From Caldilineales bacterium (GTDB lineage Bacteria; Chloroflexota; Anaerolineae; JAAEKA01): a stretch of DNA of 64,000 nucleotides. Of the stretch, positions 10,159 through 44,990 are shown piece by piece (the stretch's first letter is position 1; every line of letters begins with the position of its first letter). The translations under genes were made by a program, and so were the position numbers. Under the pieces are notes generated by a model. The model was not told the DNA's origin, did not search any database, and worked only from the letters and a program-made list of their open reading frames with translations. The stretch is taken from NCBI GenBank assembly GCA_041391245.1, contig JAWKOJ010000004.1, positions 691 through 64,690 of the forward strand, in the 5' to 3' direction.

Positions 10159-11751
10159 TTGTTTGCCTCATTGATCGACCTGCTTCATCGTCGGGCTGAA
10201 GAACAGCCTGATCAGTCAGCATATGTGTTTCTGGCAGACGGCGAGACCGACGAACATGTTGTTACCTACTCCGAGCTGGATCGGCAAGCGCGTGCCATCG
10301 CAGCTGTCTTGCAGGCGCGACACGCTGCCGGCACACGTGCACTGCTGCTCTACCCGCCGGGGCTGGACTACGTCGCTGCCTTCTATGGCTGCTTGTACGC
10401 TGGTGTGATCGCAGTCCCCGCCTATCCGCCGCGGCCGCGGCGACCCATGCCGCGCATCCAGGCCATCGTTGCCGACTGTCAGCCGTCCGTCGCGTTGACA
10501 GATGCCCGCATCCTGTCTGGCCTCGAGCACCGGCTGGCCGAGCTGCCAGACATGGACGCGCTGGATTGGATTGACACCACGGCCGTTGACTCAGCGTCGG
10601 CGGAGCGGTGGCGGCATGTGCCGGTCGCACCCGACGATCTGTCCTACTTGCAGTACACGTCCGGTTCCACCGCGACGCCCAAGGGCGTCATGGTCAGCCA
10701 CGGCAACCTTGACTTCACCCTGGCCGATCTTGACGCCGGGTCGGATGGCGAGGAGCCTTCCACCATGGTGACGTGGCTGCCGCCCTTCCACGATATGGGG
10801 CTGGTTTTTGGCATCCTGCTGCCGCTCTACGGCGGATATCCCTGCGTCATGATGGCGCCCGTCTCCTTCATCCAGCGGCCGTTGCGCTGGCTGCCGCGCT
10901 GTCCACCTACCGCGGCACCCATAGTGCCGCGCCAACTTCGCCTACGAGCTCTGTTTGGAGAAGATCAGGCCGGAGGAGCGCGCCGCTCTGAACCTGAGTC
11001 GCTGGCGCGTTGCCCTCAACGGCGCAGAGCCGGTGCGCAAGGATACCATGGATCGCTTCGCGGCTGCCTATGCCGCCAGCGGCTTTCGTCTCGATGCCTT
11101 CTCGCCCGGGTACGGGCTGGCCGAGGCGACCCTACAAGTCACCGGAATCCTGGCAGGCAGCGGCCCGACCGATCTGCTCGTGGATCCAGTTGCGTTGGAA
11201 AGGCACGAAGTCGTTCCAGCACTCGCTGGACAGACGGAGGCTCGCAGCCTGGTCGGCTACGAGCCGTCTCCCTTGCAGACGCGCTGGTGCATCGCCGACC
11301 CGGACCAGTTGACTGCCTGTGCTCCCGGCCGTGTCGGCGAGATCTGGGTGGCCGGTCCGGGCGTTGCCCAGGGCTACTGGAATCGCGCCCAGGCTACCCG
11401 CGAGACCTTTCAAGCGCACCTGGCGGACACCGGGGACGGCCCTTACCTGCGCACCGGCGACCTGGGGTTCGTGCACGACGGCAAGCTATACGTGACAGGC
11501 CGCATCAAGGACCTGATCATCGTCCGCGGGCGCAACCACTACCCGCAGGACATCGAGCTGACGGCCGAGCAGAGCCATCCGGCCCTCGAGCCGGGCGGCG
11601 GCGGCGTTCTCGCTGGAACGGAACGGTGAAGAGCGGGTCGCGCTGGTCTGCGAACTGCGGCGCGAACAGCGCAAGACCGACCCACAAGAGGTCATCGACG
11701 CGATCCGCCGGGCCGTGGCAGGGGAACACGAACTGCAGCTCTGCGCCGTAA
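10159..11751 (+). pseudogene. Fatty acyl-AMP ligase (FAAL) loading domain of the downstream PKS; frame broken three times (decay or indel errors)
   Basis: TTG start with AAAGGA upstream. Canonical FAAL sequence ('LQYTSGSTATPKGVMVSHGNL', 'WLPPFHDMGL') runs to '..SFIQRPLRWL' (~10893). Homology then continues in other frames: 'ALSTYRGTHSAAP'; 'NFAYELCLEKIRPEE...GDLGFVHDGKLYVTGRIKDLIIVRGRNHYPQDIE' (ORF 10955..11629); and 'AAFSLERNGEERVALVCELRR...SSGKIQR', in the frame of ORF 11715..18911. Confidence 0.8.
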
Positions 11752-14700
11752 CCCTGACTATGCCGGGCCAGATGCCCAACACCTCCAGCGGCAAGATCCA
11801 GCGCCAGGCTGCGCGCGCCATGTTCCTGGCGGACGAGTTCAAGACCCTGGGCCGGTGGATCGAACCAGAACACGAACCCAACCAGGGCGATCTTTCGCCT
11901 GAGCCTGCTCTGGGTGGCCTTTCGCCTGAGCCTGCTCGGGCCGGTCTCCGACCGAGTCCCGCTGAGATCGCGCCGATTGACCACCAGGATTCCAGAGACT
12001 TCCACGCGATCCGTGACTGGCTGGTGGCCCGCATCGTCGCGCAGGTCAAGGTGCCGCCCAGCCAGATCGATGTGCGCGAGCCACTGGATCGCTACGGTTT
12101 CGACTCGGTGGCGGCTGTCGCGATCACCGGTGAGTTGGGCGACTGGCTTGGACGCACGCTATCCCCCACCCTCTTCTATGAGTTCCCCACCGTGGAAGCC
12201 GTGGCGCGCCACCTGGCGGACCAGGCGGTCGTTGCGCTGCCAGACGACACGCCGCCCGGCGCCTCGTTGATTTCGCCCGGCGGCGGCCAGGAACCTGTCG
12301 CCATCATCGGCATCGGCGTGCGATTCCCCGGCGCGAACGGGCCGCAGGCGTTCTGGGAGCTGTTGCGCGACGGCATCGATGCCATCACCGAGGTGCCGCC
12401 TGACCGTTGGGACGGCCGTGCCTACTACGATCCCAACCCCGCCGCGCCGGGCAAGATGAATACCCGCTGGGGTGGCTTTCTGGAGCAGGTCGACCAATTC
12501 GACGCGGCTTTCTTTGGCATCACGCCGCGCGAGGCCGCGCGCATGGATCCGCAGCAGCGGTTGCTGATGGAGGTTGCCTGGGAAGCGCTGGAAGACGCCG
12601 GACAGGCGCCTGCCCGACTGGCCGGCCAGCGGATCGGCGTCTTTGTCGGCATCTCCAGCTTCGACTACGGCCTGTTGCAACTGGGCGACAACAGCTTGAG
12701 TGACGCCTACGCCGGCACCGGCAGTGCGCTCAGCATCGCTGCCAACCGCCTCTCCTACTTCTTCGACTGGCGTGGACCGAGTATGGCTGTGGACACAGCC
12801 TGCTCCTCGTCGCTGGTCGCGGTTCATCTGGCCTGTCAGAACCTGCGGCTGGGCGAGTGTGACATGGCTCTGGCGGCCGGGGTCAACCTGCTACTGTCGC
12901 CTGCGATGACGGTCAACTTCGCCAAGGCCGGCTTTATGGCGTCCGACGGGCGCTGCAAGCCGTTCGACGCCAGCGCCGACGGCTACGTGCGCAGCGAAGG
13001 CGCCGGGGTTGTCCTGCTCAAGCCGCTGTCGCGGGCGTTGGCCGACGGCGATCCGGTCTACGCCGTTGTGCGCGGCAGCGCGACCAACCAGGACGGCCGC
13101 AGCAACGGCCTGACGGCACCCAATCCCCAGTCCCAGATCGATGTGCTGCGCCGGGCGTACCGCCAGGCAGGCGTCTCTCCGGGCGACGTTCACTACGTGG
13201 AGACCCACGGCACCGGGACGCCGCTGGGTGATCCCATCGAGGCGCAGGCGCTGGGCGCAGTTCTGGGCGCGGGCCGGCCGGCCGGTCAGCCGGCGGCCAT
13301 TGGCTCGGTCAAGAGCAACATCGGCCACCTGGAGGCCGCCGCCGGAATCGCCGGGCTGATCAAGGTCGCGCTGGCGTTGAGACACGGCCAATTGCCGCCC
13401 AGCCTGCACTTCCGCGAGCCTAATCCCCTGATACCCTTCGAGGACCTGGCGCTGCGCGTCCAGCAGACGCTGTCCGACTGGCCGGTGGAGCCGTCCGCGG
13501 CATTGGCCGGCGTCAGCGCCTTTGGCTTCGGCGGCGCCAACGCCCACCTGGTCGTGCAGGGTCCGCCCGCGCGGCGCCCGCGGCTGGGTGCGGCTGCGTC
13601 GCGTGCTCAGGTGATTCCCCTGTCGGCGCGCAGCCCGGAAGCGCTGCGCGATCTGGCGCTGGCCTACCGCGGGTATCTCCATGCCGCGCCGTCTGGCCGC
13701 TTCGGCGACGTTGCCTACACGGCCGGCGTACGTCGCAACCATCACGATCACCGGCTGGCGCTGGTAGCTGACACGGCTGATCAGGCCGTGTCCCGGCTCG
13801 ACGCGTTTCTGGCCGGCCGCAACGCTAAGGGCCTGGAGTTTGGGCGCCGTCCGCGCCAACGGGCTGCACGCGTGGTCTTCGTTTTCTGTGGTCAGGGTTC
13901 GCACTGGTGGGCCATGGGCAGGCAGCTTCTGGCCGAAGAACCGGTCTTTCGCCGGACGGTGGAACGGTGTGACGCCTTGCTGCGCCCGCTGGCCGGCTGG
14001 AGCCTGCTTGCCGAGCTGACGGCGGACGAGGCCGACTCGCGGCTGGACTACACGACCTACGCGCAGCCGGCCATCTTCGCCGTGCAACTGGCGCTTGTCG
14101 AACTGTGGAGCACCTGGGGCATCACGCCCGACGCGGTGGTCGGCCACAGCATGGGCGAGGTCGCCGCAGCAGTGGCCGCCGGCATCCTCGACCTGCCCGA
14201 CGCGCTGCGCATTGTCTATCATCGCGGCCGGCTGATGGAGCAGGCACGCGGGACGGGCAGGCTGGTGGTCGTGGAGCTTAGCCCGGCCGAGGCTGAACTG
14301 GCTGTTGCCGGGCTGGACGACCGCATCGGCGTCGCGGTGGTCAACAGCCCCAATTCTGTGCTGCTGGGCGGCGAGACCGAAACGCTGGAGACGCTGGTCG
14401 GCAGCTTGCAGCGGCGCGGGGTTCATTGCCAGTACCTGTCGCTGGACTTCTCGTCACACAACCCGCAGATGGACCCCTATCTTGCGGAGATGGCCGGGTC
14501 GGTGGGCGAGGTCGTCTTGCGCCCGGCGGCCCTGCCACTGATCTCGACGGTTACCGGCCAGCCTGTCGGCGACACGTTGCTAGACGCGGGCTATTGGGCG
14601 CGCAACATTCGCGAGCCGGTACAGTTTGCTCAGGCGATGGAGTATCTGTTGCAGGACGGGTACGACACCTTCCTGGAGATCGGTCCGCATCCTGTGCTGG

Positions 14701-17700
14701 CGCCGGCCATCATGCAGAACATGCTGCATCACGGCGTCAGGGGAACCGTGTTGCCGTCGCTGCGGCTCAACCGGGACGACCGGAATGTCATGCTGCGCTC
14801 GCTGGCCGCGCTCTACGCAGGTGGCCGCGATCCCGACTGGTCAGCGCTGGCTGAACCGGACGCGCGGCCCGTCAGGTTGCCAACGTATCCCTGGCAGCGC
14901 GAGCGGTACTGGGTTGAAGATAGCCGGCCCGCCGGTCCACAGCCGGCGCCTCGTCCCGTTCCGATCAACGACCGTGCGACCCGACCGGCGGCGGGTGGAG
15001 ACGACAATCTGGTGTACGAGTTGGGGTGGATACCGCGCCAACTTGCCGGCAACGGTTCACAGGTTCCCCCGCGTGACGGAGCGGGCCGCTGGCTGATCTT
15101 TGCCGACCGTGGTGGGGTTGGTCAGGCCGTTGCCGGCCGCCTGCGCATGGAAGGCGACCGCTGTACGCTGGTCTTCGCTGGCGCAGAGTTCGCTCAATCG
15201 GGCGCTGACCACTTCCGGGTCGATCCTGCCAGGCCGAAGCACTTCTCACAGCTTCTGAACGCCGTGTTCGCCGATGACAAGGCGAGTTGGCGCGGCGTGC
15301 TGCACTTCTGGGCCCTGGACGCCGGGTCGCCGGAATCGGATGACAGCGCGCTGGTCGATGCCCAGACCCTCGGGTGCGGCAGCGTGCTGCATCTGGTGCA
15401 GGCGCTGGTTGCCGATCACTCCCCGACCTCCCTGCCGCTCTGGCTGGTGACACGTGGCGTTCAGCCCGTGGACGCCGCGCCGTCCGCCGAGTCGCTGGCG
15501 CAGTCGCCGCTGTGGGGGCTGGGGCGGGTTGTCGCACTGGAACATCCTGAGCTGTGGGGCGGCCTGATCGACCTGGAGCCGGGCGCGATGCGGGTCGACG
15601 CCGAGGATTTCCTCAACGCGATCCGCCACGCCGACGGTGAGGACCAGTTGGTCTTGCGCGGCCGCCGAACGTACGTGGCACGCCTGCTACGCGCCGAAGC
15701 GGTGTCCGGCGAGCACGCGACCGGCCGGATTCGACCCGATGCAACGTACCTCCTCACCGGTGGTCTGGGTGAGTTAGGGCTCGAGGCGGCGCGCTGGCTG
15801 GTGGACCGCGGCGCGACGAGCCTGGCGCTGCTGGGACGCACCCCGTTGACGCCGGGCAGCAAGGCCGCGGCCGCGGTGCGGGCGTTGGAGGAGAAGGGCG
15901 CCTCGGTGGCGACGCTGGCTGCTGACGTGGGCGACCGCGCACAAATGACCGCCGTGTTCGGCCAGATCGCCGCTACTCTGCCGCCGTTGCGTGGTATCGT
16001 CCATGGGGCAGGCGTTCTGGAGAATCGATCGCTGGCTGAACTGAGCCTGGAATCGCTGCACGCGACGATGCGGCCCAAGGTTGCCGGAACCTGGGTGCTG
16101 CAACAACTGGCTGGTGAACTGGACCTGGACTTCTTCCTGCTGTTCTCGTCCATGACGGCGGTCTTGGGCTGGCGCTACGCTGGCCACTACGCCGCGGCCA
16201 ACCATTTTCTCGACACCTTTGCGCACTATCGCCGGGGCGCCGGGCGGCTCGCCACGAGCATCAACTGGGGGCCGTGGGGCGAGGTCGGCATGGTCAGGCG
16301 CGGCCAACTGGAGGAAAGCTTCACGCGCATGGGGATTGCGCCGCTGCCGCCCGCGGCCGGCCTTACCCAGCTGCAGAAGCTAGTGGCCGCTGCGCCTACC
16401 CAGGCTGCGGTCATCGACGCCAACTGGGAACGGTTTGATGCGCTCTACCAGTCGATCCGGCCCACTCGCCTGCTCACGCAGCTTGATCCCTCTCCCGCAA
16501 CAAACCATACTGCTTCTGACCAGACGGTCGTGGAGCGGCTCAGTGCTGCGTCGTTCACCCAGTGGCAGGATATTCTGGCGGTGTTTCTGCGCCGCAAGGT
16601 CGCCCATGTGCTGCGCGTCGACCCGGACCAGGTGCCGGGCGATCTGAGCGTGGTCGAGCTAGGACTGGATTCTATCATGGCGATGGAGGTCACTTGGGCG
16701 TGCAACGAGGAGCTTTCCGTGCGGCTGATGCTGCGGGAGGTGTTCGAACAGCCGTCGCTAACCGCTCTCGCAGGCACGCTGGCCGAGAAGCTGGCCGAGA
16801 TGCCGTCGATGCGTGTCAACGGCAACGGGTCTGCAACACGCTGGGATGACTCTGCCGCGAACCCGCCACCTCATGTCAACGGCATGGCTGGCAGGCCAGC
16901 CGCTGAGATCAAGCCGGCAACGCCACCGGATGCTCTGACATCGCTGGTTCCGCTGCGGGCCAGGGGAACCAGGACGCCGTTGTTTCTGGTTCCCCCGGGA
17001 GCGAGCACCGTGTTGAGCTTTGGCGCGCTGGTGCAGTGTCTGGACGCTGACCAGCCGGTCTATGGGCTGGAGCCGCTGGGGATGGATGGCAGGCACCCGC
17101 CGCAGTGGCGGGTGGAGGATATGGCGTCCCACTACATCAATGAAATCATGACCGTTCAGCCTCGCGGTCCCTACCTCTTGGGCGGGCGCTGTTTCGGCGG
17201 GCTGGTCGCATTGGAGATGGCGCAGCAGTTGCGCGCCCAAGGGCAGCGAGTGGCGATGTTGGCAATCCTCGACACCCTCCAACCGCCCAAGCCCAGCTGG
17301 TTGCGAGATCAGTCGCCAGAGGGCCAGGAGGAGGATTCCAGCCTTGTGAGACGGATGGCAGGTCGCTGGGTGCGCAACACCTATCGGCTATGGAAACGAC
17401 TGACGATCACCGATGCGTTTACGCTGTACACGCTGAGGCAGGTGCTTCCTGAAGACCGTTTCCCCAACATACTGAGCGCGGAGGCGCGCCACATTCGCAA
17501 CACGGCGCGGGCGCACTACCAGGCCAACGAGTTGTACCTGCCGCGACTCTACGAGGGGCGGTTGACGCTCTTTTCCAACGCCGGCCACAACGGCAGCCAT
17601 CAACTCAACTGGGCCGCGCTGACTTCGCAGGCAGTGGACATCCATGTTGTCCCCGGCAACCACCTCACGATGTTCAAAGAACCGTATGTCCGCGTGCTGG

Positions 17701-18911
17701 CCGATGTGTTGACCAACACCATGGCGCAGGCCTTGCAGCGGGCCGAGTCTTCGAGGACACGCCGGACCGCGCTGAGCCCTGGCGTGGAGGCCGGCCAACT
17801 CGACGTTGCGATGCGGACGTCGGCGGTGCAGGTCCGCGACACGGATCACACCGTCCAGTTGTCCGATGATCGGCTGGAGCAGGGCATCTTGCAGGCATGT
17901 ACAGCCGTGTTTGGCGACCGGCCGGCCGGCGACGGTCGCATCCCGGACGTGGCGGAGTTTCCGTTTGTCGAGGCCTATCTGGCAGCGGAGTTGGCACGCT
18001 CGACGGGCCGAAGGTTTTCGACGGCCTCGATGATAGGGAAGCCTGCCGTCAGCCGGCTGGCCAGCCGGGCGGCCGACGACGGGAACCCTGCCGCTTCGGG
18101 CACGCTGGTGCCACTGAAACCGGCCGGCGCGCGGTCTCCGCTCTTCCTCGTGCCTGACATCGATCAGACGGCCGCCAGCCTGGTGAAGTTGGCCGGTCTG
18201 CTGGATGTGGGGCAACCCTGCTTTGGCTTTCAGCCGCCCGGCCTCGAGCCGGGTCAGCGACCCTTCGCCAGCATTGAGGAGATGGCAGCCGCTTTTGTGG
18301 ATGACATGCGACGGGTTCAGCCCCATGGTCCCTACGCTTTGGGCGGGATTGGCTTTGGCGGCATTGTGGCCTTCGAGATGGCGCAGCAGTTGGCGGCGAC
18401 TGGCGAGATTGTCTCACTGTTGGCCGTGCTGGATACCCTGGTGCCGCCCAACGCCACGCTGCACTACTGGTATCCACCGGCTTCCGTGGGTGCAAAGGGG
18501 CCCGCGCCGCGCTGGTTGGTGCAGCGAGCCATTGGTCGCCTGGTGTATCAGATACAGCGGCGTCAGCAGCGCGGCAGCATTCCGCGCCGCGCCCGGTCGC
18601 AGATGAGCTGGCCGCGCAGGTTTGGTCAGCGCTTCAGCCCTGCCACGCGCCGTATTCAGGCGATGTTGACGGCCCATTTTGAGGCGCGCTTGCGCTACCA
18701 ACCGCAGGTCTACCCCGGCAGGATTACCCTGTTCTCCAACGCCAAACACACCGGCGCGCATCAGGTCAAGTGGGCGCTGCTGACCGAGGTGGGCATGGAG
18801 ATCGAGGTGATTCCGGGCGATCACCGGTCCATCTTCAGACAGCCCGGCATCGCGGAGCTGGCCCACCGGCTGTCGATGCACCTGGAGCAGGCGCAGGCAG
18901 GGCCAGTCTGA
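11715..18911 (+). CDS. Type I PKS: (FAAL C-terminus)-ACP-KS-AT-KR-ACP-TE(Cys)-ACP-like-TE(Gly)
   Basis: - ACP1 'YGFDSVAAV' (Ser codon 12105..12107).
- KS 'DTACSSSL' (Cys 12801..12803), 'HGTGTPLGD', 'KSNIGHLEAAAG'.
- AT 'GHSMGE' (Ser 14148..14150), 'FSSH' (14448..14459).
- KR 'YLLTGGLGELG' and 'GHYAAANHF'; no DH or ER.
- ACP2 'LGLDSIMAME' (Ser 16671..16673).
- Two thioesterase folds follow. Confidence 0.9.
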   Translation: MAGEHELQLCAVTLTMPGQMPNTSSGKIQRQAARAMFLADEFKTLGRWIEPEHEPNQGDLSPEPALGGLSPEPARAGLRPSPAEIAPIDHQDSRDFHAIRDWLVARIVAQVKVPPSQIDVREPLDRYGFDSVAAVAITGELGDWLGRTLSPTLFYEFPTVEAVARHLADQAVVALPDDTPPGASLISPGGGQEPVAIIGIGVRFPGANGPQAFWELLRDGIDAITEVPPDRWDGRAYYDPNPAAPGKMNTRWGGFLEQVDQFDAAFFGITPREAARMDPQQRLLMEVAWEALEDAGQAPARLAGQRIGVFVGISSFDYGLLQLGDNSLSDAYAGTGSALSIAANRLSYFFDWRGPSMAVDTACSSSLVAVHLACQNLRLGECDMALAAGVNLLLSPAMTVNFAKAGFMASDGRCKPFDASADGYVRSEGAGVVLLKPLSRALADGDPVYAVVRGSATNQDGRSNGLTAPNPQSQIDVLRRAYRQAGVSPGDVHYVETHGTGTPLGDPIEAQALGAVLGAGRPAGQPAAIGSVKSNIGHLEAAAGIAGLIKVALALRHGQLPPSLHFREPNPLIPFEDLALRVQQTLSDWPVEPSAALAGVSAFGFGGANAHLVVQGPPARRPRLGAAASRAQVIPLSARSPEALRDLALAYRGYLHAAPSGRFGDVAYTAGVRRNHHDHRLALVADTADQAVSRLDAFLAGRNAKGLEFGRRPRQRAARVVFVFCGQGSHWWAMGRQLLAEEPVFRRTVERCDALLRPLAGWSLLAELTADEADSRLDYTTYAQPAIFAVQLALVELWSTWGITPDAVVGHSMGEVAAAVAAGILDLPDALRIVYHRGRLMEQARGTGRLVVVELSPAEAELAVAGLDDRIGVAVVNSPNSVLLGGETETLETLVGSLQRRGVHCQYLSLDFSSHNPQMDPYLAEMAGSVGEVVLRPAALPLISTVTGQPVGDTLLDAGYWARNIREPVQFAQAMEYLLQDGYDTFLEIGPHPVLAPAIMQNMLHHGVRGTVLPSLRLNRDDRNVMLRSLAALYAGGRDPDWSALAEPDARPVRLPTYPWQRERYWVEDSRPAGPQPAPRPVPINDRATRPAAGGDDNLVYELGWIPRQLAGNGSQVPPRDGAGRWLIFADRGGVGQAVAGRLRMEGDRCTLVFAGAEFAQSGADHFRVDPARPKHFSQLLNAVFADDKASWRGVLHFWALDAGSPESDDSALVDAQTLGCGSVLHLVQALVADHSPTSLPLWLVTRGVQPVDAAPSAESLAQSPLWGLGRVVALEHPELWGGLIDLEPGAMRVDAEDFLNAIRHADGEDQLVLRGRRTYVARLLRAEAVSGEHATGRIRPDATYLLTGGLGELGLEAARWLVDRGATSLALLGRTPLTPGSKAAAAVRALEEKGASVATLAADVGDRAQMTAVFGQIAATLPPLRGIVHGAGVLENRSLAELSLESLHATMRPKVAGTWVLQQLAGELDLDFFLLFSSMTAVLGWRYAGHYAAANHFLDTFAHYRRGAGRLATSINWGPWGEVGMVRRGQLEESFTRMGIAPLPPAAGLTQLQKLVAAAPTQAAVIDANWERFDALYQSIRPTRLLTQLDPSPATNHTASDQTVVERLSAASFTQWQDILAVFLRRKVAHVLRVDPDQVPGDLSVVELGLDSIMAMEVTWACNEELSVRLMLREVFEQPSLTALAGTLAEKLAEMPSMRVNGNGSATRWDDSAANPPPHVNGMAGRPAAEIKPATPPDALTSLVPLRARGTRTPLFLVPPGASTVLSFGALVQCLDADQPVYGLEPLGMDGRHPPQWRVEDMASHYINEIMTVQPRGPYLLGGRCFGGLVALEMAQQLRAQGQRVAMLAILDTLQPPKPSWLRDQSPEGQEEDSSLVRRMAGRWVRNTYRLWKRLTITDAFTLYTLRQVLPEDRFPNILSAEARHIRNTARAHYQANELYLPRLYEGRLTLFSNAGHNGSHQLNWAALTSQAVDIHVVPGNHLTMFKEPYVRVLADVLTNTMAQALQRAESSRTRRTALSPGVEAGQLDVAMRTSAVQVRDTDHTVQLSDDRLEQGILQACTAVFGDRPAGDGRIPDVAEFPFVEAYLAAELARSTGRRFSTASMIGKPAVSRLASRAADDGNPAASGTLVPLKPAGARSPLFLVPDIDQTAASLVKLAGLLDVGQPCFGFQPPGLEPGQRPFASIEEMAAAFVDDMRRVQPHGPYALGGIGFGGIVAFEMAQQLAATGEIVSLLAVLDTLVPPNATLHYWYPPASVGAKGPAPRWLVQRAIGRLVYQIQRRQQRGSIPRRARSQMSWPRRFGQRFSPATRRIQAMLTAHFEARLRYQPQVYPGRITLFSNAKHTGAHQVKWALLTEVGMEIEVIPGDHRSIFRQPGIAELAHRLSMHLEQAQAGPV
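11892..11937. repeat. 27-bp-period direct duplication in the FAAL-ACP linker
   Basis: ctttcgcctgagcctgctc occurs at 11892..11910 and again at 11919..11937, encoding 'LSPEPALGG LSPEPARAG'. Confidence 0.7.
16944..17745 (+). other. Thioesterase domain with Cys at the nucleophile elbow (GxCxG)
   Basis: 'RTPLFLVPPGAS'; 'QPRGPYLLGGRCFGGLVALEMAQQL' (TGT codon at 17190..17192); 'AILDT'; 'VVPGNHLTMF' (His codon 17661..17663). Confidence 0.75.
17874..18908 (+). other. Degenerate carrier-like segment plus second thioesterase fold with Gly at the nucleophile position
   Basis: 17874..18080 has carrier-protein spacing but 'FPFVEAYLAAEL' where GxDS(L/I) is expected. The TE fold from 18105 has 'RSPLFLVPD', 'QPHGPYALGGIGFGGIVAFEMAQQL' (GGC codon at 18351..18353) and 'VIPGDHRSIF'. 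Confidence 0.65.
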
Positions 18912-19092: not shown

Positions 19093-19354
19093 AGTTTTCG
19101 AACGAGTAAGCCAACGCAATAGACGCAGCGATCGAAGTAGTCAACGCGGGGATGGCAACTTCAGTCTTTTCGCTGTTGCCCGTTTGTTGCCTGTGCCACG
19201 GGCGAGTTCTTGCCGGTCAACCCTTCGGCGCCTTTCCTGATCCATGTTTTGCGAATGCAGCCGGATGTTGGGCCGGTTGTGCGTTCAAAGCACTGCCACT
19301 ACCGATGCCTGACTTGGGTCGCGATTGACCGCGACCGTTGTAGAAGACCATCAT

Positions 19355-22300
19355 ATGACGGACACACTTCAATCTATCGTCGTTACGCCTGTCGGCCAGT
19401 TGGAGCCTGCGCTGGCAATTGCCGCGACCCGCGCCGGCGCGTTGGGCTGCCTTGACCTTGAGTTCGCCGTCGACAATAGCGCTGCGCGCCGGGCTGTCAG
19501 GCGACTGGAGCAGCACGCCGGCGGACCGTATGGTGTCAAGGCCAGCTATCGCCAGACTGAACTTCTGGCGGCCTTGGACGATGGTTCTCTGCCGCGTTTG
19601 ACGTTTGTGCTACTCTCGGCTGACGGCGAGATCGATCGCGACGCGCTTCAGCGGCATGTGGAGGCAGCCCGCAGCCGCGGCCTGCGCGTGTTGCTCCAGG
19701 TCAGCGACATCCTCCTGGCTCAGACAGGTGAAGGCCTGGGAGTGGACGGCGTGGTGGCCAAGGGGCACGAGAGCGGCGGCTTCGTCGGCGAAGAGACGAC
19801 GTTCGTTCTGCTGCAGCGTTGCCTGATGCACCTGTCGTTGCCCGTCTTCGCCCATGGTGGAATCGGCCTGCACACCGCGGCTGCCTGTTACGCGGCCGGC
19901 GCGGCCGGCATCGTTCTCGACGCGCAGCTGGCGCTGGCCAAGGAGTCTCAACTGCCTGAAGCCGTCAAGGACGCCGTCGCATCCATGGACGGCAGTGAGA
20001 CCGTTTGTCTGGGCGCCGAGCTGGGGCAGGCCGTTCGTCTGTACAGGCGTCCACACACGGTGGCGACGAGACAGTTGGCGGAGACCGCATCTGCGCTGGA
20101 TAGTGAGGCGCAGAGCGACCGGCAGCAGGCCTGGCTGGACGCGGTAGAGAGCCGCATCGGCTGGGGCGATCTGGAGCAGCAGGCGTGGCCGTTGGGTCAG
20201 GACGCCGCCTTTGCACGCGCGCTGGCGGAACGCTATCACACCGTCGGCGGCATCTTGCAGGCCTATCGCGACAGCGTTGCCAGCCACATCGAGGCAGCGG
20301 CGCTCAGCCAGCCGCTGGATGCCGGTTCAGCGCTCGCGCAGTCCCACGGCACCCGTTATCCCATCGTTCAAGGACCTATGACGCGGGTCAGCGACACAGC
20401 CCGCTTTGCGTTCGACGTGGCCGAGGCTGGCGGACTGCCGTTCCTGGCGCTGGCGCTGATGCGCAAGGAGCAGGCCATGCCGGTGCTGGAGGAGACGAAA
20501 CACCTGTTGGGCGACCGTCCCTGGGGCGTGGGCATTCTGGGGTTCGTGCCGGCTGCCATACGCTCGCAGCAGCTTGAGGCCATTGCGGCGGTCGGACCCG
20601 ATTTTGCGATCATCGCCGGTGGCCGGCCCGATCAGGCCAAGACGCTGGAGAAGCAGGGCATCGCAACCTATCTGCACGTGCCGTCGCCCGCGCTGCTGCG
20701 GCTGTTCCTGGACGACGGCGCCAAGCGCTTCATCTTCGAGGGGCGCGAGTGCGGCGGACACGTTGGGCCGCGCGCCAGCTTCGTGCTCTGGAACGCCATG
20801 ATCGACGCGCTGCTGGCCCATTTCGACACCACCGGCGCCGATCCCGCAGCGTATCATATCCTTTTCGCTGGCGGGGTCCACGACTCGTTGTCGGCGCTGA
20901 TGGTGGCCAGCCTGGCCGGCCCGCTGGCCGAGCGAGGCGTGCGGATCGGCGTCCTCATGGGAACCGCCTATCTCTTCACCCACGAGGCGGTGACATCGGG
21001 CGCCATCACAGCACGCTACCAGCAGGAGGCTGTGCGCAGCAGGCAGACCGTGCTGGTCGAGTCGGGCGTCGGCCACATGACGCGCTGCCTGCCAACCCCC
21101 TTCGTCGAGGCGTTTGCGCAGCGCAAGCGCACCCTCGTTCAGGAAGGCGCGGACGGCGACCGTTTACGCCAGGAGCTGGAGGACCTGAACATTGGCCGCC
21201 TGCGCATGGCCAGCAAGGGGATCAACCGCAACCCTGACGCCCGCACCCAGCCCGGCGCTCCCGCCTACATCACGCTGGACGAGCAGGAACAATACCAGCA
21301 GGGCATGTACATGATCGGCCAGGTGGCGGGGCTGCGGGATGAGGTCTGCTCGCTGGAGGAGCTGCACCGGGAGGTGTCAGTGGCTGGCGCGCGGCGGCTG
21401 GCGAGCCTGGCTGCCACCCAGCAGCCTGCATCAACGGAGGCGCTCCTGCCGCCGCCGGCGCGTGTTGCCATCATCGGCATCGCCACTGTACTGCCTGGCG
21501 CCGCCGACTTGCAGACCTACTGGGAAAACATCCTTGACAAGGTCGATGCCATCAGCGAGATACCGGTCGAGCGCTTCGACTGGCGGCGCTACTACGATCC
21601 CGACAAGAGCGCCCGCGACAAGATCTACTCGCGCTGGGGCGGGTTCATCGACGATGTGCCGCTCAACCCGCTGGACTACGGCATGCCGCCCAACTCGATC
21701 CCCTCCATCGAGCCGATGCAACTGCTGATGCTGGAGGTCGTGCGCGCCGCGCTCAAGGACGCCGGCTATCTCGACCGCCCCTTTGCCCGCGAGCGGACTT
21801 CCGTGACAATGGCGGTCGGCGGCGGCCTGGGCGACCTGGGATTCAACTACGGCGTGCGCTCCTACTTGCCGCATTACCTGTCAGCCGCCTCTCAGGAGGT
21901 CATTGACAGGCTGGACGACGCTCTGCCGGAGTGGACCGAGGACTCGTTCCCCGGCATCCTGCTCAACGTGCTGGCCGGGCGGATCGCCAACCGCTTCAAC
22001 CTCAACGGACCGAATCTCGTCGTGGACGCCGCCTGCGGCTCGTCGCTGGCCGCACTCGATATCGCGGTCAAGGACCTGCAGACCCACCGAACCGACGTTG
22101 CCATCGTCGGCGGCGCCGACACGGTGCAAAGCCCATTCGGCTTCCTGGCTTTCAGCAAGACCCAGGCGCTGTCGCCGCGCGGCCGCTGCCGCCCCTTCGA
22201 CGTCGAGGCGGACGGAATCGCCATCAGCGAAGGGCTGGCAGTGGTGGTGCTGAAGCGTCTTGAGGACGCCGAGCGCGATGGCGACCGCATCTACGCGGTC

Positions 22301-25300
22301 ATCCAGGGTGTCGGTGCATCCAGCGACGGCCGCGACCGCAGCCTGACCGCGCCCCGGCCGCTGGGCCAGTTGCTGGCGCTGCGGCGAGCTTACGGCCAGG
22401 CTGGTTTCGACCCGGCGACGCTGAGTCTGATCGAGGCTCACGGCACCGGCACCCGGCTGGGCGACCAGGTCGAAGCCGAGGCGCTGGCGACTCTCTTCCA
22501 GGAATCGGGACTGGATCGACCGACCTGCGCAGTGGGTTCGGTCAAGTCGATGATCGGACACACCAAGAGCACGGCCGGGCTGGCCGGGATGATCAAGGTC
22601 GCCCTGGGTTTGTATCACAAGGTGCTTCCGCCGACGTTGGTGGACACGCCCAACCCCGACATCAGCCTCAACGGCAGCCCGATCTATGTCAACAGCGAGC
22701 CGCGTCCGTGGCTGCGACCTGACGACCGCGCGGCCCGGCGGGCAGGCGTCAGCGCGTTCGGCTTCGGCGGCACCAACTTCCACGCCGCGCTGGAGGAGTA
22801 CCGCGGCGACTATCTGCCGCGCAGCGCCAGCCGCCACACCTGGTCTGAGGAGATCGTTGTCCTGCGGGCAACCGATCGCGAGGGGTTGCTGGACGAGATC
22901 GACCGGCTGGCGGGCTGGCTGGAGGCCGGCAACACGCCGCCGCTGCGCCACCTGGCCTACACCATGGCTCGCCGCGCGCGCCGTGTTCGACAAGAGTCGG
23001 CGCTGACCCTGTCGTTGGTCGCCAGTTCGCTGGTGGATCTGCGCCAGATGTTGGCCATGGCCAGAAGCGAACTGCACGCGGGCGCCGACTTGATCCTGAA
23101 CCCGCAAGGAATCTACTTCGCCGACGAACCGCTGGGGCGAGCCGGCAAGGTGGCGTTCCTGTACCCCGGCCAGGGGTCACAGTACCCTAACATGCTGGCC
23201 GATCTGGTCATGCAGTTTCCGCATGTGGGTGAGCCGTTTGAGCGCGCCAATAGCCAGCTTGCCGGCAAACTGAAGCGGCCATTGGGCGAATACGTATACC
23301 CTGTTCCAGCCTACGACGACGACACGGCCAGCCGGCAGCGGGCTGAGTTGACCGACACGCGCATTGCGCAGCCGGCCCTGGGCGCAGCCGGGCTGGCGGT
23401 CAGCCGCTTCCTGGCGGCCGTGGGGCTGCAGCCCGACTTCGTTGCCGGGCACAGCTACGGCGAGCTGGTGGCCCTGTGCCAGGCGGGCGTCTTCGACGAG
23501 GACACGCTGTATGCGGTCTCGCTGGCCCGCGGGCAGTTCATGGCCGAGGCCACGGGCCCGGACTCCGGCACCATGGCGGCCGTCATCGCCGATCGGACCG
23601 TCGTCGAGGAGGTCATGCGCGGCTTGTCCGATGTGACGATCGCCAACCTCAACTCGCCGCGCCAGACGGTGATTTCCGGCCCGACGGCGGCTGTCGAACG
23701 CGCGGTCGAGGTGTTCATCCAGCGCGGCATCCAGGCCCGGCGCATTCCCGTTGCCTGCGCGTTCCACTCGCCGCTGGTCGAGCCGGCCCAGCAGCGGCTG
23801 GCCGAGTACCTGGAGGCTGTCGAGTTTCACCCGCCGCAGGTAGGTGTCTATTCCAACAGCCTGGGCGGCCCGTATCCCGACGATCCGGCGCAGATTCGTG
23901 ATGTCCTGTCGCGGCAACTGGCGCAGCCGGTGCGTTTCACCGAGGAGATCGAGGCGATGTACGCGGCCGGCGCGCGCATTTTCGTGGAGACCGGACCGCG
24001 CAGCGTGCTGACCGGGTTGGTGCACCAGATCCTGGGCAATCTGCCCCACCTGGCTGTGGCGGTCGACTCGGGCGGCCGCGGCTTATCGGCCGTCCAGCGG
24101 GCGCTGGCGCAGGTGATCGCCATCGGCGCAGACATCGACCTCAGCGTGCTCTACGAAGGCCGAGATGTGCAGGAGATCAGCCTCAACGCGCCCTACGCGG
24201 ATCCCGCCAGGGCAGCCTACGGTCCGACGACCTGGCTGGTCAACGGCGGGCGGGCGCGCCGCTGGCTCGATGTGGAGCGAGGGCTGCCGGAGCCGGTCGT
24301 CAAACCCCTCGACGTTGCGCTGGCGGCGAGTGCTGTGCCTGATCAGCCCGGCGTCTCTGCTGGGCAGCGCGAGCAGGTTGCCGAACCGCCGAGACCTGCG
24401 CCCGACCAGCCGCCGATCCCTGCCAAGCAGGTCGCAGCACAGCAGCAGAGCGCGCCGTTGCCGCAGGCCGCCGCTTACGGCGACGCGGCCCAGGTGATGG
24501 TCCAGACCCAGGAGTTAATGGCTCGTTTCCTGCAGATGCAGGCCAACGTGATGAGCAGTTATCTGGACGACGCTCCTCTGGCGCCTGCTCCTATCCTGCC
24601 TGGTGTTCCGGGTGGACAGACGGAGGTCACGCCGCCGGCTACGGAGCCGTTGCAGGCGGAGCCGGCGGCCGTGCTGAAGCGCCAGCCGCGGCTGCCCACG
24701 AGCCAGCCGGTCGCCGCCCCGTCGCCCATCCTGCGCTTCACGCTGGCCGCCGACCGGGCGCCGGTGATCAACGCAACGGCCGGCCTTGCGCCGGGCCGCG
24801 CGGTGCTGATTGCAGCCGACGCTTACGGCGTGGCGGACCAGGTGGCGGCGGCCCTGCGCGAGCAGGGTTACGACGCGGTGATAGTCCGTAACCGCCCGGC
24901 CAAGCATTCGAACGGCGCCAACGGGGCCAATGGCTCTGGCAGCAACGGGCGAGCCGCGCACTCAGATGACTGGCACTATGCGGCGACGCTGACGGACGGT
25001 GCAGATGTGAGGGCCGTGCTTTCGGCCGTTCGTCGCGAGCACGGGGCCATCGGCAGTCTGCTGTATCTGGCCGCCCTCAGCCCGGCGCAACCGTTCGCCG
25101 AGATGACGCTCGCCAGGTGGCAGCAACACGTCGAAGCTGATCTGGTCGCCTTCTTCAACCTGCTGCAGGACGTGCAGGCGGACCTGGTTGGCGCGGCCGC
25201 GGCCGGCGGAGCCTGCTTGCTGGCGGCAACGCAGATGGGCGGCGACTTTGCCGTTGGCGCTGAAAGCGCGGGCGACTTCTCGCCCGCGCAGGCCGGCATC

Positions 25301-25594
25301 GCCGGCTTGCTCAAGACGGCCGCGCACGAGTTGCCTGCAGTGCGCGCCAAGGTTGTCGACTTTGGCGCGACCGACGAAGCCAGCGAGCTTGCGCGGGCGA
25401 TTCTGGCCGAAACCGGCGCTGCCGACGGCTTGACAGAGGTCGGCTACCGCGACGGCGTGCGCACGATGATCACGCTGCGCCATGCGCCGGTCGATTCACG
25501 CCTGGCGAACACGGCAATCCTCGACGACCAGTGCGTGGTCCTGGTGACGGGCGGGGCGCGGCATCACGGCCAGCGTTGTGCAGGCGCTGGCTGA
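19355..25594 (+). CDS. PKS subunit: tandem NMO/PfaD-type enoylreductase domains-KS-AT-(KR N-terminal part); frame breaks at ~25556..25561
   Basis: Likely ATG at 19355 ('MTDTLQSIVVTPVGQ').
- ER-a: 'GVVAKGHESGGFVG', 'LPVFAHGGIGL'.
- ER-b from ~20342: 'YPIVQGPMTRVSD', 'EGRECGGHVGPRASF', 'GVLMGTAYLFTHE'.
- KS: 'VDAACGSSL' (Cys 22034..22036), 'HGTGTRLGD', 'KSMIGHTKSTAG'.
- AT: 'FLYPGQGSQYPNM', 'GHSYGE' (Ser 23453..23455), 'CAFH' (23756..23767).
- Pro/Ala linker, then KR 'VVLVTGGAR'.
- No carrier domain found. Confidence 0.88.
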   Translation: MTDTLQSIVVTPVGQLEPALAIAATRAGALGCLDLEFAVDNSAARRAVRRLEQHAGGPYGVKASYRQTELLAALDDGSLPRLTFVLLSADGEIDRDALQRHVEAARSRGLRVLLQVSDILLAQTGEGLGVDGVVAKGHESGGFVGEETTFVLLQRCLMHLSLPVFAHGGIGLHTAAACYAAGAAGIVLDAQLALAKESQLPEAVKDAVASMDGSETVCLGAELGQAVRLYRRPHTVATRQLAETASALDSEAQSDRQQAWLDAVESRIGWGDLEQQAWPLGQDAAFARALAERYHTVGGILQAYRDSVASHIEAAALSQPLDAGSALAQSHGTRYPIVQGPMTRVSDTARFAFDVAEAGGLPFLALALMRKEQAMPVLEETKHLLGDRPWGVGILGFVPAAIRSQQLEAIAAVGPDFAIIAGGRPDQAKTLEKQGIATYLHVPSPALLRLFLDDGAKRFIFEGRECGGHVGPRASFVLWNAMIDALLAHFDTTGADPAAYHILFAGGVHDSLSALMVASLAGPLAERGVRIGVLMGTAYLFTHEAVTSGAITARYQQEAVRSRQTVLVESGVGHMTRCLPTPFVEAFAQRKRTLVQEGADGDRLRQELEDLNIGRLRMASKGINRNPDARTQPGAPAYITLDEQEQYQQGMYMIGQVAGLRDEVCSLEELHREVSVAGARRLASLAATQQPASTEALLPPPARVAIIGIATVLPGAADLQTYWENILDKVDAISEIPVERFDWRRYYDPDKSARDKIYSRWGGFIDDVPLNPLDYGMPPNSIPSIEPMQLLMLEVVRAALKDAGYLDRPFARERTSVTMAVGGGLGDLGFNYGVRSYLPHYLSAASQEVIDRLDDALPEWTEDSFPGILLNVLAGRIANRFNLNGPNLVVDAACGSSLAALDIAVKDLQTHRTDVAIVGGADTVQSPFGFLAFSKTQALSPRGRCRPFDVEADGIAISEGLAVVVLKRLEDAERDGDRIYAVIQGVGASSDGRDRSLTAPRPLGQLLALRRAYGQAGFDPATLSLIEAHGTGTRLGDQVEAEALATLFQESGLDRPTCAVGSVKSMIGHTKSTAGLAGMIKVALGLYHKVLPPTLVDTPNPDISLNGSPIYVNSEPRPWLRPDDRAARRAGVSAFGFGGTNFHAALEEYRGDYLPRSASRHTWSEEIVVLRATDREGLLDEIDRLAGWLEAGNTPPLRHLAYTMARRARRVRQESALTLSLVASSLVDLRQMLAMARSELHAGADLILNPQGIYFADEPLGRAGKVAFLYPGQGSQYPNMLADLVMQFPHVGEPFERANSQLAGKLKRPLGEYVYPVPAYDDDTASRQRAELTDTRIAQPALGAAGLAVSRFLAAVGLQPDFVAGHSYGELVALCQAGVFDEDTLYAVSLARGQFMAEATGPDSGTMAAVIADRTVVEEVMRGLSDVTIANLNSPRQTVISGPTAAVERAVEVFIQRGIQARRIPVACAFHSPLVEPAQQRLAEYLEAVEFHPPQVGVYSNSLGGPYPDDPAQIRDVLSRQLAQPVRFTEEIEAMYAAGARIFVETGPRSVLTGLVHQILGNLPHLAVAVDSGGRGLSAVQRALAQVIAIGADIDLSVLYEGRDVQEISLNAPYADPARAAYGPTTWLVNGGRARRWLDVERGLPEPVVKPLDVALAASAVPDQPGVSAGQREQVAEPPRPAPDQPPIPAKQVAAQQQSAPLPQAAAYGDAAQVMVQTQELMARFLQMQANVMSSYLDDAPLAPAPILPGVPGGQTEVTPPATEPLQAEPAAVLKRQPRLPTSQPVAAPSPILRFTLAADRAPVINATAGLAPGRAVLIAADAYGVADQVAAALREQGYDAVIVRNRPAKHSNGANGANGSGSNGRAAHSDDWHYAATLTDGADVRAVLSAVRREHGAIGSLLYLAALSPAQPFAEMTLARWQQHVEADLVAFFNLLQDVQADLVGAAAAGGACLLAATQMGGDFAVGAESAGDFSPAQAGIAGLLKTAAHELPAVRAKVVDFGATDEASELARAILAETGAADGLTEVGYRDGVRTMITLRHAPVDSRLANTAILDDQCVVLVTGGARHHGQRCAGAG

Positions 25595-26399
25595 GCGCTA
25601 CCGGCCCACGGTCATCCTGGTCGGACGCTCGCCGGCGCCGCCGGAGCAGGAAGCCGCGGAGACTGCCAACCTGACGACGGCGCGCGAGATCAAGGCGGCG
25701 CTGCTGCGCGGCATGGGCAGCCAGGACAAGCCGGCCGCGCTGGCCGAGGTCGAGGCGGCCTATGGGCGTTTGCTGCGCGAGCGGGAGATGCGAAGCAATC
25801 TGCGTCGTCTGCAGCGCACCGGCGCCCGGGTCGAGTATCACTCGCTGGATGTGCGTGACGAGGCGGCGTTTGCGGCGCTGATCGAGGGCATCTACACGCG
25901 CTTTGGCCGCCTTGACGGCGTGATCCACGGTGCGGGCGTGGTCGAGGACAGACTGATCAAGGACAAGACGGTCGACTCGCTGCGGCGGGTAGTGAGCACC
26001 AAGGTGGACAGCGCCTTCGTCCTCAGCCGCTCGCTGCGGCCCGAGTCGCTCAAGTTCCTGGTGTTCTTCTCGTCGGTGAGCGGGCGCTTCGGCAACCGCG
26101 GCCAGGGCGACTATGCCGCGGCCAACGAGGTGCTCAACAAGCTGGCGGTGCTGCTGGATCGCGCCTGGCCGGCGCGCGTTGTGGCCATCAACTGGGGACC
26201 ATGGGATGCGGGCATGGTATCCGACGAGCTGCGCCGCCAGTTTCAACAGCGGGGAGTCAGCCTTGTGCCCGTCGATGCGGGGTCGCAGCGGTTGATCGAG
26301 GAGCTGAACGCCGGCCAGAAGCGCGCCCCCGAGGTGCTGATCTGCGGCGAGGACAACCAAGTCATGGCGCGCGCAGCGTCCACCAGGGTTGCCGGGTGA
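25578..26399 (+). CDS. Ketoreductase catalytic part, continuation of the 19355 gene in a shifted frame
   Basis: The shifted frame reads '(GITASV)VQALAERYRPTVILVGRS', i.e. the rest of the TGGARGIT Rossmann motif. Later 'HGAGVVEDRL', 'FFSSVSGRFGNRGQGDYAAANEVLNKLA' and 'INWGPWDAGMV'. Confidence 0.85.
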   Translation: MQALAERYRPTVILVGRSPAPPEQEAAETANLTTAREIKAALLRGMGSQDKPAALAEVEAAYGRLLREREMRSNLRRLQRTGARVEYHSLDVRDEAAFAALIEGIYTRFGRLDGVIHGAGVVEDRLIKDKTVDSLRRVVSTKVDSAFVLSRSLRPESLKFLVFFSSVSGRFGNRGQGDYAAANEVLNKLAVLLDRAWPARVVAINWGPWDAGMVSDELRRQFQQRGVSLVPVDAGSQRLIEELNAGQKRAPEVLICGEDNQVMARAASTRVAG

Positions 26400-32541: not shown

Positions 32542-32847
32542 ATGCAACCTATTACACGAACCGAAGTTTGGGACGCAACATTGCGTCTGTTGGAGCAACT
32601 GTCCGAAGATTGGGACTATGACGACGAGATAACCGGCGAAACCTGGCTGTTCTCCGAGCTGGGTTTCCAGTCGCTGGATGCCGTTGTGCTGGGCAACACG
32701 TTGCAGGAGCGATTCGGCCGCCCGATCCCCTTCGCCGACCTCCTGGTAGACATCGGGCAACGGCCGGTCAACGACGTGACGGTCGACGAGTGGGTCGATT
32801 TCACTACCAAAAGCCTGCAATCCTACGACCTTGAAAAGGCATCATGA
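32542..32847 (+). CDS. Discrete acyl carrier protein
   Basis: ~101 aa from the ATG at 32542 ('MQPITRTEVWDATLRLLEQL'). Attachment motif 'ELGFQSLDAVVLGNTL' (Ser codon 32671..32673). The stop overlaps the next gene's ATG (ATGA). Confidence 0.75.
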   Translation: MQPITRTEVWDATLRLLEQLSEDWDYDDEITGETWLFSELGFQSLDAVVLGNTLQERFGRPIPFADLLVDIGQRPVNDVTVDEWVDFTTKSLQSYDLEKAS

Positions 32848-34454: not shown

Positions 34455-34476
34455 CCGGACAAGGAGCGAGTAGCCA

Positions 34477-36224: not shown

Positions 36225-36278
36225 GCGGTCTTTCTGATACCGCTTTTGAAATATCTCTATCGGACAGGAAACCTCTGA

Positions 36279-37316: not shown

Positions 37317-37430
37317 GCATTCATCCTGGTTGAGCCGGGTCTGTGCACAGCCACCGGGCGGCGAATTGCACAGAGCAGCGACACCAGTTTAGATGCATCT
37401 GCGACATTCGAACGTTCAAGAGGAGACTCC

Positions 37431-38297: not shown

Positions 38298-38337
38298 TTC
38301 GATAGACTCCTTCGAAATAGAACTTGGAGATTATTGC

Positions 38338-40401: not shown

Positions 40402-40418
40402 ATGGTGGAGATATAACG

Positions 40419-42557: not shown

Positions 42558-42574
42558 GGCCGGGAGGATCTGTC

Positions 42575-43924: not shown

Positions 43925-43939
43925 TCCAGGAGAAATGAG

Positions 43940-44968: not shown

Positions 44969-44990
44969 GAGGCAGCGCAAGGAGACTGGC

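Follow-up and report, generated by a model that had tools for sequence, protein, structure and literature searches.

What a polyketide or lipid ends up as chemically is decided at chain release, and thioesterase (TE) domains are favored for pathway engineering. The olefin synthase (Ols) of Synechococcus PCC 7002 and the terminal module of CurM share the architecture FAAL-ACP-KS-AT-KR-ACP-ST-TE (fatty acyl-AMP ligase, acyl carrier protein, ketosynthase, acyltransferase, ketoreductase, sulfotransferase, and TE). The nonribosomal peptide synthetase (NRPS) termination modules for lysobactin, arthrofactin, and teixobactin carry tandem TEs, both of which keep their serine, with a short linker between them. 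The TE of Pks13 is an acyltransferase that passes mycolic acid to trehalose. Here we describe a gene from a 64,000-nucleotide stretch of a Caldilineales bacterium genome (contig JAWKOJ010000004.1, positions 691 to 64,690; the whole stretch is referred to as the window). The gene is an unusual variant that combines an Ols-like FAAL-polyketide synthase (PKS), a TE with a cysteine nucleophile (Cys-TE), and a tandem TE, each of which is known. Its TE-bearing open reading frame (ORF; 11715..18911, + strand, 2398 aa) ends in a cysteine thioesterase (TE1), a carrier-like stretch (PCP0), and a second TE fold (TE2, or TE0 in domain strings). Very probably, TE1 is an active release catalyst, and the PCP0-TE0 pair is unable to act as a carrier and a thioesterase.

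The window gene has the same FAAL-ACP-KS-AT-KR-ACP order as Ols and CurM (the FAAL is intact in the orthologue L004), but it differs from them at the release end. No sulfotransferase was found in window segment 16281..16943, and the gene lacks this domain; the spacing between the second carrier (ACP2) and TE1 is 43 residues. TE1 is an NRPS-type Cys-TE, in contrast with the decarboxylating serine TE (Ser-TE) of the CurM type, and it is trailed by a dead peptidyl carrier protein (PCP) and a dead TE. As in the NRPS tandem TEs, two TE domains stand at the C-terminus; in the window gene, however, they are 117 to 119 residues apart with the dead PCP between them, and TE2 lacks a nucleophile. The enduracidin tri-TE, with three active Ser-TEs, is not comparable with this arrangement. 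Pks13 resembles the window gene in being FAAL fed and in handling a long-chain, beta-functionalized acyl substrate, and its TE matched TE1 both by sequence in the Protein Data Bank (PDB) (E = 1.5e-10) and in Foldseek. It differs in having a Ser nucleophile, a module without KR, and a single TE.

Cysteine nucleophiles are known from the beta-lactone-forming TE of ObiF and the beta-lactam-forming TE of SulM, in which the catalytic Asp is shifted to a later strand; ObiF has Gly at nucleophile+27 (PMC6668435, PMC11298585). ObiF shows that a Cys-TE is able to close a beta-lactone (PMC6668435). AB3403 pairs its Cys with an Asp in the conventional position (PMC11298585). A literature search for PKS Cys-TEs, tandem TEs with dead partners, and Ols-like genes in Chloroflexi found nothing beyond the ObiF and SulM papers.

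The cysteine thioesterase TE1

TE1 (16944..17750, + strand; Pfam PF00975, with alignment to 7crn and 4zxh) reads LLGGRCFGGLVALEMAQQL. Its nucleophile codon is TGT at 17190..17192, and the AILDT and PGNH motifs are kept, giving a triad of Cys1826 (17190..17192), Asp1853 (17271..17273), and His1983 (17661..17663). In phmmer comparisons with all PDB chains, GGRCFGG of TE1 aligned with the catalytic-Ser motif GWSLGS of the skyllamycin TE (7crn), with GWALGS of its Ser-to-Ala mutant (7dxo), and with the catalytic-Cys motif GGWCFGG of AB3403 (4zxh). Of the two domains, TE1 has the Ser or Cys expected at the nucleophile elbow of a type I TE (Cys1826), and TE2 has Gly2213 there; Asp at nucleophile+27 and the His of PGxH are present in both domains. 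PF00975 matched the release region in two stretches (E = 1.4e-43). An AlphaFold2 model of 16944..18908 (655 aa) gave both TE alpha/beta cores at a predicted local distance difference test (pLDDT) score of >90, with low values for the lids and the stretch between the domains. The top 50 Foldseek matches of this model were type I TEs only, including SkyXY, AB3403, EntF, Pks13, NocB, Vlm2, and fatty acid synthase (FAS); the CurM TE was absent from these 50.

The reading made from the DNA alone (the sequence-only reading) had placed TGT at 17190..17192 and GGC at 18351..18353 in the nucleophile codons of the two TEs. Both codons and the motifs quoted with them are where it put them, and in the phmmer alignments both residues fall on the nucleophile column of 7crn and 4zxh. 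It had also described the preceding module as having KR and no dehydratase (DH), and Pfam agrees: the TE-bearing ORF reads ACP-KS-AT-KR-ACP-TE-TE, with no DH or enoylreductase (ER) between AT and ACP2, so that a 3-hydroxyacyl chain is offered to TE1. Judged by its sequence, TE1 is a competent Cys-nucleophile type I thioesterase behind a KR-only module.

The premise that Ser-to-Cys TEs are rare was not supported by a census of this TE neighborhood. The residue in the nucleophile column of a hidden Markov model alignment was read for 323 TE domains from 264 retrieved proteins, a sample biased toward relatives of the query: 187 had Ser, 120 Cys, 6 Gly, 5 Asp, 2 Ala, and 1 each Asn, Gln, and Thr. 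The nearest nonorthologous relatives of TE1 and TE2 had GxCxG in every case, and Asp stood at +27 in 43 of the 44 Cys-TEs of the first homologue set. Among the TE domains of proteins P0001 to P0120, an oxyanion loop of the form VPP(G/A)x(S/T)T, located after strand beta-3 and represented in TE1 by VPPGAST, was found in 21 Cys-TEs and in no Ser-TE; the Ser-TEs of this family mostly carry an H(P/A/G)xGG-type loop there. This covariation of loop and Cys could mark a Cys-TE clade. Members of the clade mostly end NRPS modules (C-A-T-TE, A-T-TE, or C-T-TE); one cyanobacterial relative, L065, is a stand-alone C-A-T-TE module with an uninformative neighborhood. On these features, TE1 is a typical representative of a Cys-TE clade of considerable size.

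A close counterpart of known structure is AB3403, an uncharacterized C-A-T-TE protein of Acinetobacter baumannii (4zxh), which was both the third-best PDB sequence match of TE1 (E = 3.5e-17) and one of the top Foldseek matches. The two share the GGxCFGG elbow and Asp at Cys+27 (Cys1137/Asp1164 in AB3403). AB3403 differs in its HPxGG oxyanion loop, in contrast with VPPGAST in TE1, in its NRPS context, and in having a single TE.

By analogy with ObiF and SulM, TE1 had been suggested to form a beta-lactone, in which case the 3-hydroxyl would attack the Cys thioester to give a long-chain product. The Cys nucleophile and the beta-heteroatom substrate are shared with ObiF and SulM, the KR without a DH would leave the 3-hydroxyl in place, and ObiF is a precedent for the reaction (PMC6668435). 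However, TE1 shares the Cys+27 position of its Asp with EntF and AB3403, whereas the Asp is displaced in ObiF and SulM and position +27 is Gly in ObiF. None of the 39 sequences matching TE1 among all PDB chains (phmmer, E ≤ 10) was ObiF, SulM, or the CurM TE, and kinship of TE1 with these three was rejected at that threshold. Cys is also common in this clade, across all kinds of NRPS contexts. Nor is the TE1-PCP0-TE2 cassette tied to a beta-hydroxy substrate: in orthologues described below it also stands behind ACP-ST (L005 and P0123) and behind FAAL-ACP, which provides no beta-hydroxyl (P0122). Finally, the glycosylation enzymes of the cluster fit a free hydroxy-acid or an ester product. We consider beta-lactone formation by TE1 very unlikely. 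GxCxG alone is not predictive of a beta-lactone, and the position of the catalytic Asp is more telling.

TE2 and the carrier relic PCP0

TE2 (18084..18908, + strand; delimited by alignment to 7crn and NocB) reads ALGGIGFGGIVAFEMAQQL, with GGC at 18351..18353 (Gly2213) in the nucleophile position. AVLDT and PGDH are kept, with Asp2240 (18432..18434) and His2370 (18822..18824). By phmmer, GGIGFGG of TE2 fell on the column that holds the catalytic Ser in 7crn and the catalytic Cys in 4zxh. Its oxyanion loop is remodeled from VPPGAST to VPDIDQT; orthologues have VPDID(Q/R)T, and L005 has VPDDAGT. Conserved motifs specific to TE2 are PDID(Q/R)T, the lid motif PPNATxxYWYPP, and HQVKWA. The best nonorthologous BLAST matches of TE2 were the TE1 domains of the same proteins (184 to 202 bits versus ≤171 bits for other TEs), and a derived motif, TLFSNxxHTGxHQxxWAxLT, is common to TE1 and TE2 and absent from other relatives. 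These matches identify TE2 as a TE1 paralogue from which the nucleophile has been lost.

Orthologues were sought in 185,579 species genomes and, exhaustively with phmmer, among 1.84 billion cluster representatives. They were few, and all were in metagenome-assembled genomes of Anaerolineae. L004, from Anaerolineales HK-STAS-CHLO-17, has an intact ORF of 2937 aa; the others are L001/P0001, L002/P0002, L166/P0121, L164/P0122, and two from Ardenticatenaceae, L005 and L165/P0123. The TE1 Cys was encoded by TGT or TGC in all 7 loci that cover TE1, and at the TE2 nucleophile position 8 of 8 loci had either Gly, encoded by GGC or GGT, or Ala, encoded by GCC. A sequencing error at TGT or GGC was ruled out, as Cys and Gly/Ala recur with varying codons in these 7 to 8 loci.

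Identity and dN/dS between the window and L004 were calculated per segment for KS (87% identity, dN/dS of 0.09), AT (77%, 0.18), KR (71%, 0.17), TE1 (78%, 0.12), and TE2 (68%, 0.16). The carrier-like stretch PCP0 was 35% identical (dN/dS of 0.34), and the linker before it was 20% identical (dN/dS of 1.3). TE2 is constrained as strongly as the catalytic domains, and PCP0 is weakly constrained, with a pace of change close to that of a linker. Purifying selection on TE2 indicates that it is retained for a function and is not decaying; pseudogene decay of TE2 was ruled out by its dN/dS and by its identity of 68% versus 20% for the neighboring linker.

The linker and PCP0 occupy 17751..18083 (+ strand; PCP0 core at about 17874..18080). 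The Pfam PP-binding model (PF00550) had no match in the window copy of this stretch; of the orthologues, P0002 scored 32.2 bits, above the cutoff of 20.8, L005 fell just short of it with 20.2, and L004 scored 16.8. FPFVEAYL starts at 17958, and in the window copy the phosphopantetheine Ser is replaced by Pro (AEFPF). In an alignment with true PCPs, none of the eight orthologues had Ser at this site: Pro was found in the window, L004, P0001, P0121, and P0122, Ala in P0002, and Tyr in L005 and P0123. The absence of the carrier Ser noted in the sequence-only reading is thus general to the family. PCP0 had pLDDT values of 38 to 54 in the AlphaFold2 model.

Of the earlier description of this region as a duplicated ACP-TE pair, the TE half stands, as TE2 is a TE1 paralogue; the carrier half does not, as the carrier is of the NRPS PCP type. 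A profile built from the eight PCP0 orthologues scored 58 to 68 bits on NRPS PCPs preceding TEs in this family, versus ≤3 bits on ACP2 (1.3 bits for the ACP2 of the same protein), which ruled out PCP0 as an ACP2 copy. The NCBIfam EntF model aligned residues 2088 to 2245 with EntF residues 1010 to 1170, and metagenome PCP-TE didomains aligned collinearly with PCP0-TE2 from the start of the relic onward. Together, these three results argue for an NRPS-type PCP rather than an ACP2 duplicate, and PCP0 is most consistently interpreted as a degenerate peptidyl carrier domain. A scan of JGI metagenomes yielded no further PCP0-TE2 orthologues, only ordinary PCP-TE didomains of 28 to 39% identity. Since PCP0 lacks the phosphopantetheine Ser and TE2 lacks a nucleophile, the pair can neither carry a chain nor work as a covalent thioesterase. 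The proposal that the second carrier-TE pair is a noncatalytic partner holds in this respect, with the key residues lost in every orthologue and TE2 under selection.

Tandem TEs were present in 59 proteins of this neighborhood, and about 13 of the 59 had a pseudo-TE partner in which the nucleophile was replaced by Gly, Ala, Asp, Asn, or Gln. Four tandem-TE proteins (P0152, P0153, P0185, and P0190) carry a Cys-TE with Gly at +27, an ObiF-like signature. About 20 to 30 residues further on, a TE-like domain begins that has Asp in place of the nucleophile and, where that region is covered, lacks the His. By these residues they are better candidates than the window TE1 for an unusual ring-forming release. 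A partial protein, P0147 (479 aa), has, in this order, a TE(Cys), a PCP with an intact GGHS serine, and a TE-like domain whose nucleophile position is Gln; decay of the TE-PCP-TE layout may be less advanced in this protein.

Cassette reuse and the proposed off-loading mechanism

Pfam showed the cassette in three architectures that differ in what precedes it. The gene of the window, L004, L001, and P0121 ends in KR-ACP-TE(Cys)-PCP0-TE0(Gly). In L005 and P0123, a sulfotransferase is inserted to give KR-ACP-ST-TE(Cys)-PCP0-TE0(Ala); this domain (L005 9098..9889; P0123 residues 1048 to 1257) matched the CurM ST 4gbm (E = 1.5e-82) and 4gox (E = 4.8e-80), which we take to be the Ols ST. In P0122 (L164 10001..14161, GCA_034717495.1; 1386 aa), the order is FAAL-ACP1-TE(Cys)-PCP0-TE0(Gly), without KS-AT-KR-ACP2; its ACP is an orthologue of ACP1, the loading carrier of the window gene, and the same two PfaA-like genes lie downstream. 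These three contexts indicate that the cassette handles 3-hydroxy, probably 3-sulfooxy, and plain acyl chains. The ST-bearing variant relates the gene family to the olefin synthase/CurM type, here with a different, NRPS-derived TE unit, and the Ols-like module of L005 and P0123 with its non-CurM TE unit could lead to a sulfated lipid or to an alkene with a terminal double bond. Hydrolysis in P0122 would undo the work of the FAAL in a futile cycle, which favors acyl transfer.

On balance, we favor a reading in which the window gene is an Ols-like FAAL-PKS without ST, TE1 off-loads the chain, and TE0 is a conserved pseudoenzyme partner. ACP2 would hand the 3-hydroxyacyl chain to Cys1826 of TE1 to form a thioester acyl-enzyme, with His1983 and Asp1853 activating first the thiol and later the nucleophile that attacks the thioester. 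The chain would exit as a free acid or, likelier given the architecture of P0122, as an ester or amide on an O or N acceptor. PCP0, which cannot be phosphopantetheinylated, would serve mainly as a spacer, and TE0 would be a folded, conserved, nonnucleophilic partner of TE1 that has a structural role or binds the substrate or the acceptor. We infer acyl transfer as the off-loading chemistry, and the partner role of TE0, with modest confidence.

Several points weigh against this reading. The AlphaFold2 model gave neither a reliable interdomain geometry (predicted template modeling score, 0.53) nor a confident PCP0 fold. P0122 could be a nonfunctional deletion, which would weaken the futile-cycle argument. 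Four small deletions in the window sequence, described below, mean that the FAAL-PKS may be inactive in this particular genome. Finally, the His and Asp of TE2 are kept in 8 of 8 orthologues, while the His is mostly gone from the other TE-like domains of tandem proteins that lack a nucleophile.

This last pattern bears on the alternative that TE2 is still an enzyme, acting independently of a nucleophile through its His-Asp pair and the new acidic loop; it might, for example, process the acid that TE1 releases in an elimination, a decarboxylation, or the hydrolysis of an activated intermediate. A dN/dS at the level of the catalytic domains and the motifs peculiar to TE2 are consistent with such a role, as is the activating sulfotransferase that precedes the cassette in L005. 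Against it, the His and Asp sit in the LDT and PGxH motifs, which are structurally conserved anyway, the oxyanion loop has been remodeled, and the window lineage has no sulfotransferase to make a leaving group. No type I TE fold that works without a nucleophile is known to us. A catalytic TE2 seems doubtful.

A further alternative concerns the destination of the chain. TE1 may act as a thiol-to-thiol relay that passes the ACP-bound fatty acyl or 3-hydroxyacyl chain to a thiol of the two PfaA-like synthases, with the FAAL-PKS gene as the starter module of the pathway instead of its last step. The gene order FAAL-PKS, PfaA-like 1, PfaA-like 2 is kept in the window, L004, L001, L164, and L166, and FAAL-ACP is a typical loading unit that is fused directly to the cassette in P0122. 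Thioester-to-thioester transfer is energy neutral and suits a Cys; fungal SAT domains use GXCXG for such transfers. However, the CurM/Ols-type ST directly before TE1 in L005 and P0123 points to termination, ACP-to-KS transfer from one PKS to another normally proceeds without a TE, and the Cys-TEs of this clade end ordinary NRPS termination modules. We regard the relay as slightly more doubtful still than a catalytic TE2.

The preferred reading, off-loading by TE1 with TE0 as a partner, can be extended to a more general one, in which TE(Cys)-PCP0-TE0 is a portable release cassette whose pseudo-TE is an obligatory partner that enables nonhydrolytic off-loading. TE0 might then, for example, bind the acyl acceptor or shield the reactive thioester, and off-loading might be to a sugar or lipid acceptor or take the form of the thiol relay to the PfaA-like synthases. 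Taken as a whole, with these specific roles as parts of it, this extension is unlikely, if somewhat less so than the catalytic TE2. An active Cys-TE with a pseudo-TE behind three architectures would add a type of termination unit and an example of an assembly-line pseudoenzyme.

The FAAL-PKS gene, its integrity, and its cluster

Three-frame translation and a GC3 frame plot showed that the N-terminus of ORF 11715..18911 is the tail of a FAAL, the remainder of which lies upstream in two other frames. This indicates a full gene with the order FAAL-ACP-KS-AT-KR-ACP-TE1-X-TE2. The FAAL loading domain occupies 10159..11850 (+ strand; Pfam AMP-binding on ORF 10159..11751) and is broken by three small deletions; by tblastn it is 70 to 73% identical, in two frames, to the intact FAAL of L004. 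The downstream domains, all on the + strand, are ACP1 (12018..12215; PP-binding, aa 102 to 167; Ser in YGFDSVAA), the ketosynthase (12291..13412; ketoacyl-synt and Ketoacyl-synt_C, aa 193 to 566), the acyltransferase (13875..14807; Acyl_transf_1, aa 721 to 1031), and the ketoreductase (15741..16280; KR, aa 1343 to 1522), which keeps TGGLGELG and its Lys, Ser, Tyr, and Asn. A KR-prefix/psi-KR match covers aa 1098 to 1255. ACP2 (16593..16793; PP-binding) is a PKS-type carrier with LGLDSIM and its Ser codon at 16671..16673.

Compared with L004, the window has four frame-breaking deletions of 1 to 2 nucleotides. Three are in the FAAL (near 10885, 10930, and 11600) and split the domain over three reading frames. 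The fourth, of 2 nucleotides at about 25553..25557, falls in the next gene, within the TGGxxG Rossmann motif of its KR. This gene appears as ORFs 19325..25594 and 25578..26399 in the window, whereas it is a single ORF in L004 (2350 aa) and in L164 (2318 aa). These deletions raise the alternative that the unusual TE residues belong to a decaying or misassembled gene without function, and the L001 contig is likewise broken by many frameshifts. However, the 2398-aa frame is uninterrupted through the TE region, the L004 orthologue is intact, 7 to 8 independent assemblies keep the Cys and the Gly/Ala although their codons differ synonymously, and dN/dS is 0.12 to 0.16 for the two TEs. All four indels lie in G/C runs, as is typical of consensus errors. 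The deletions look like consensus error, with real inactivation as the alternative, and a functionless gene is extremely unlikely, even more so than a beta-lactone-forming TE1.

The FAAL-PKS heads a PfaA-like "secondary lipid" cluster with glycosylation genes. It is followed by PfaA-like synthase 1 (19325..26399; PfaD-type ER-KS-AT-KR) and PfaA-like synthase 2 (26912..32419; KS-AT-ACP-DH with a C-terminal phosphopantetheinyl transferase domain). A tailoring run at 32844..45731 (+ strand) encodes an alkaline-phosphatase-family protein, an alpha/beta hydrolase, two short-chain dehydrogenases/reductases, a methyltransferase, a GT1 (EryCIII-like) glycosyltransferase, an NDP-sugar epimerase/dehydratase, and a nucleotidyl transferase. 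Two adjacent ORFs in the cluster, 38338..40401 (687 aa) and 40419..42557 (712 aa), had no Pfam or NCBIfam match. The locus ties an uncharacterized Anaerolineae lipid cluster to the olefin synthase (Ols/CurM) family. We would guess that its product is a glycosylated hydroxy-lipid; the products suggested are 3-hydroxy fatty acids or their glycosides in the window lineage and 1-alkenes or sulfated lipids in Ardenticatenaceae.

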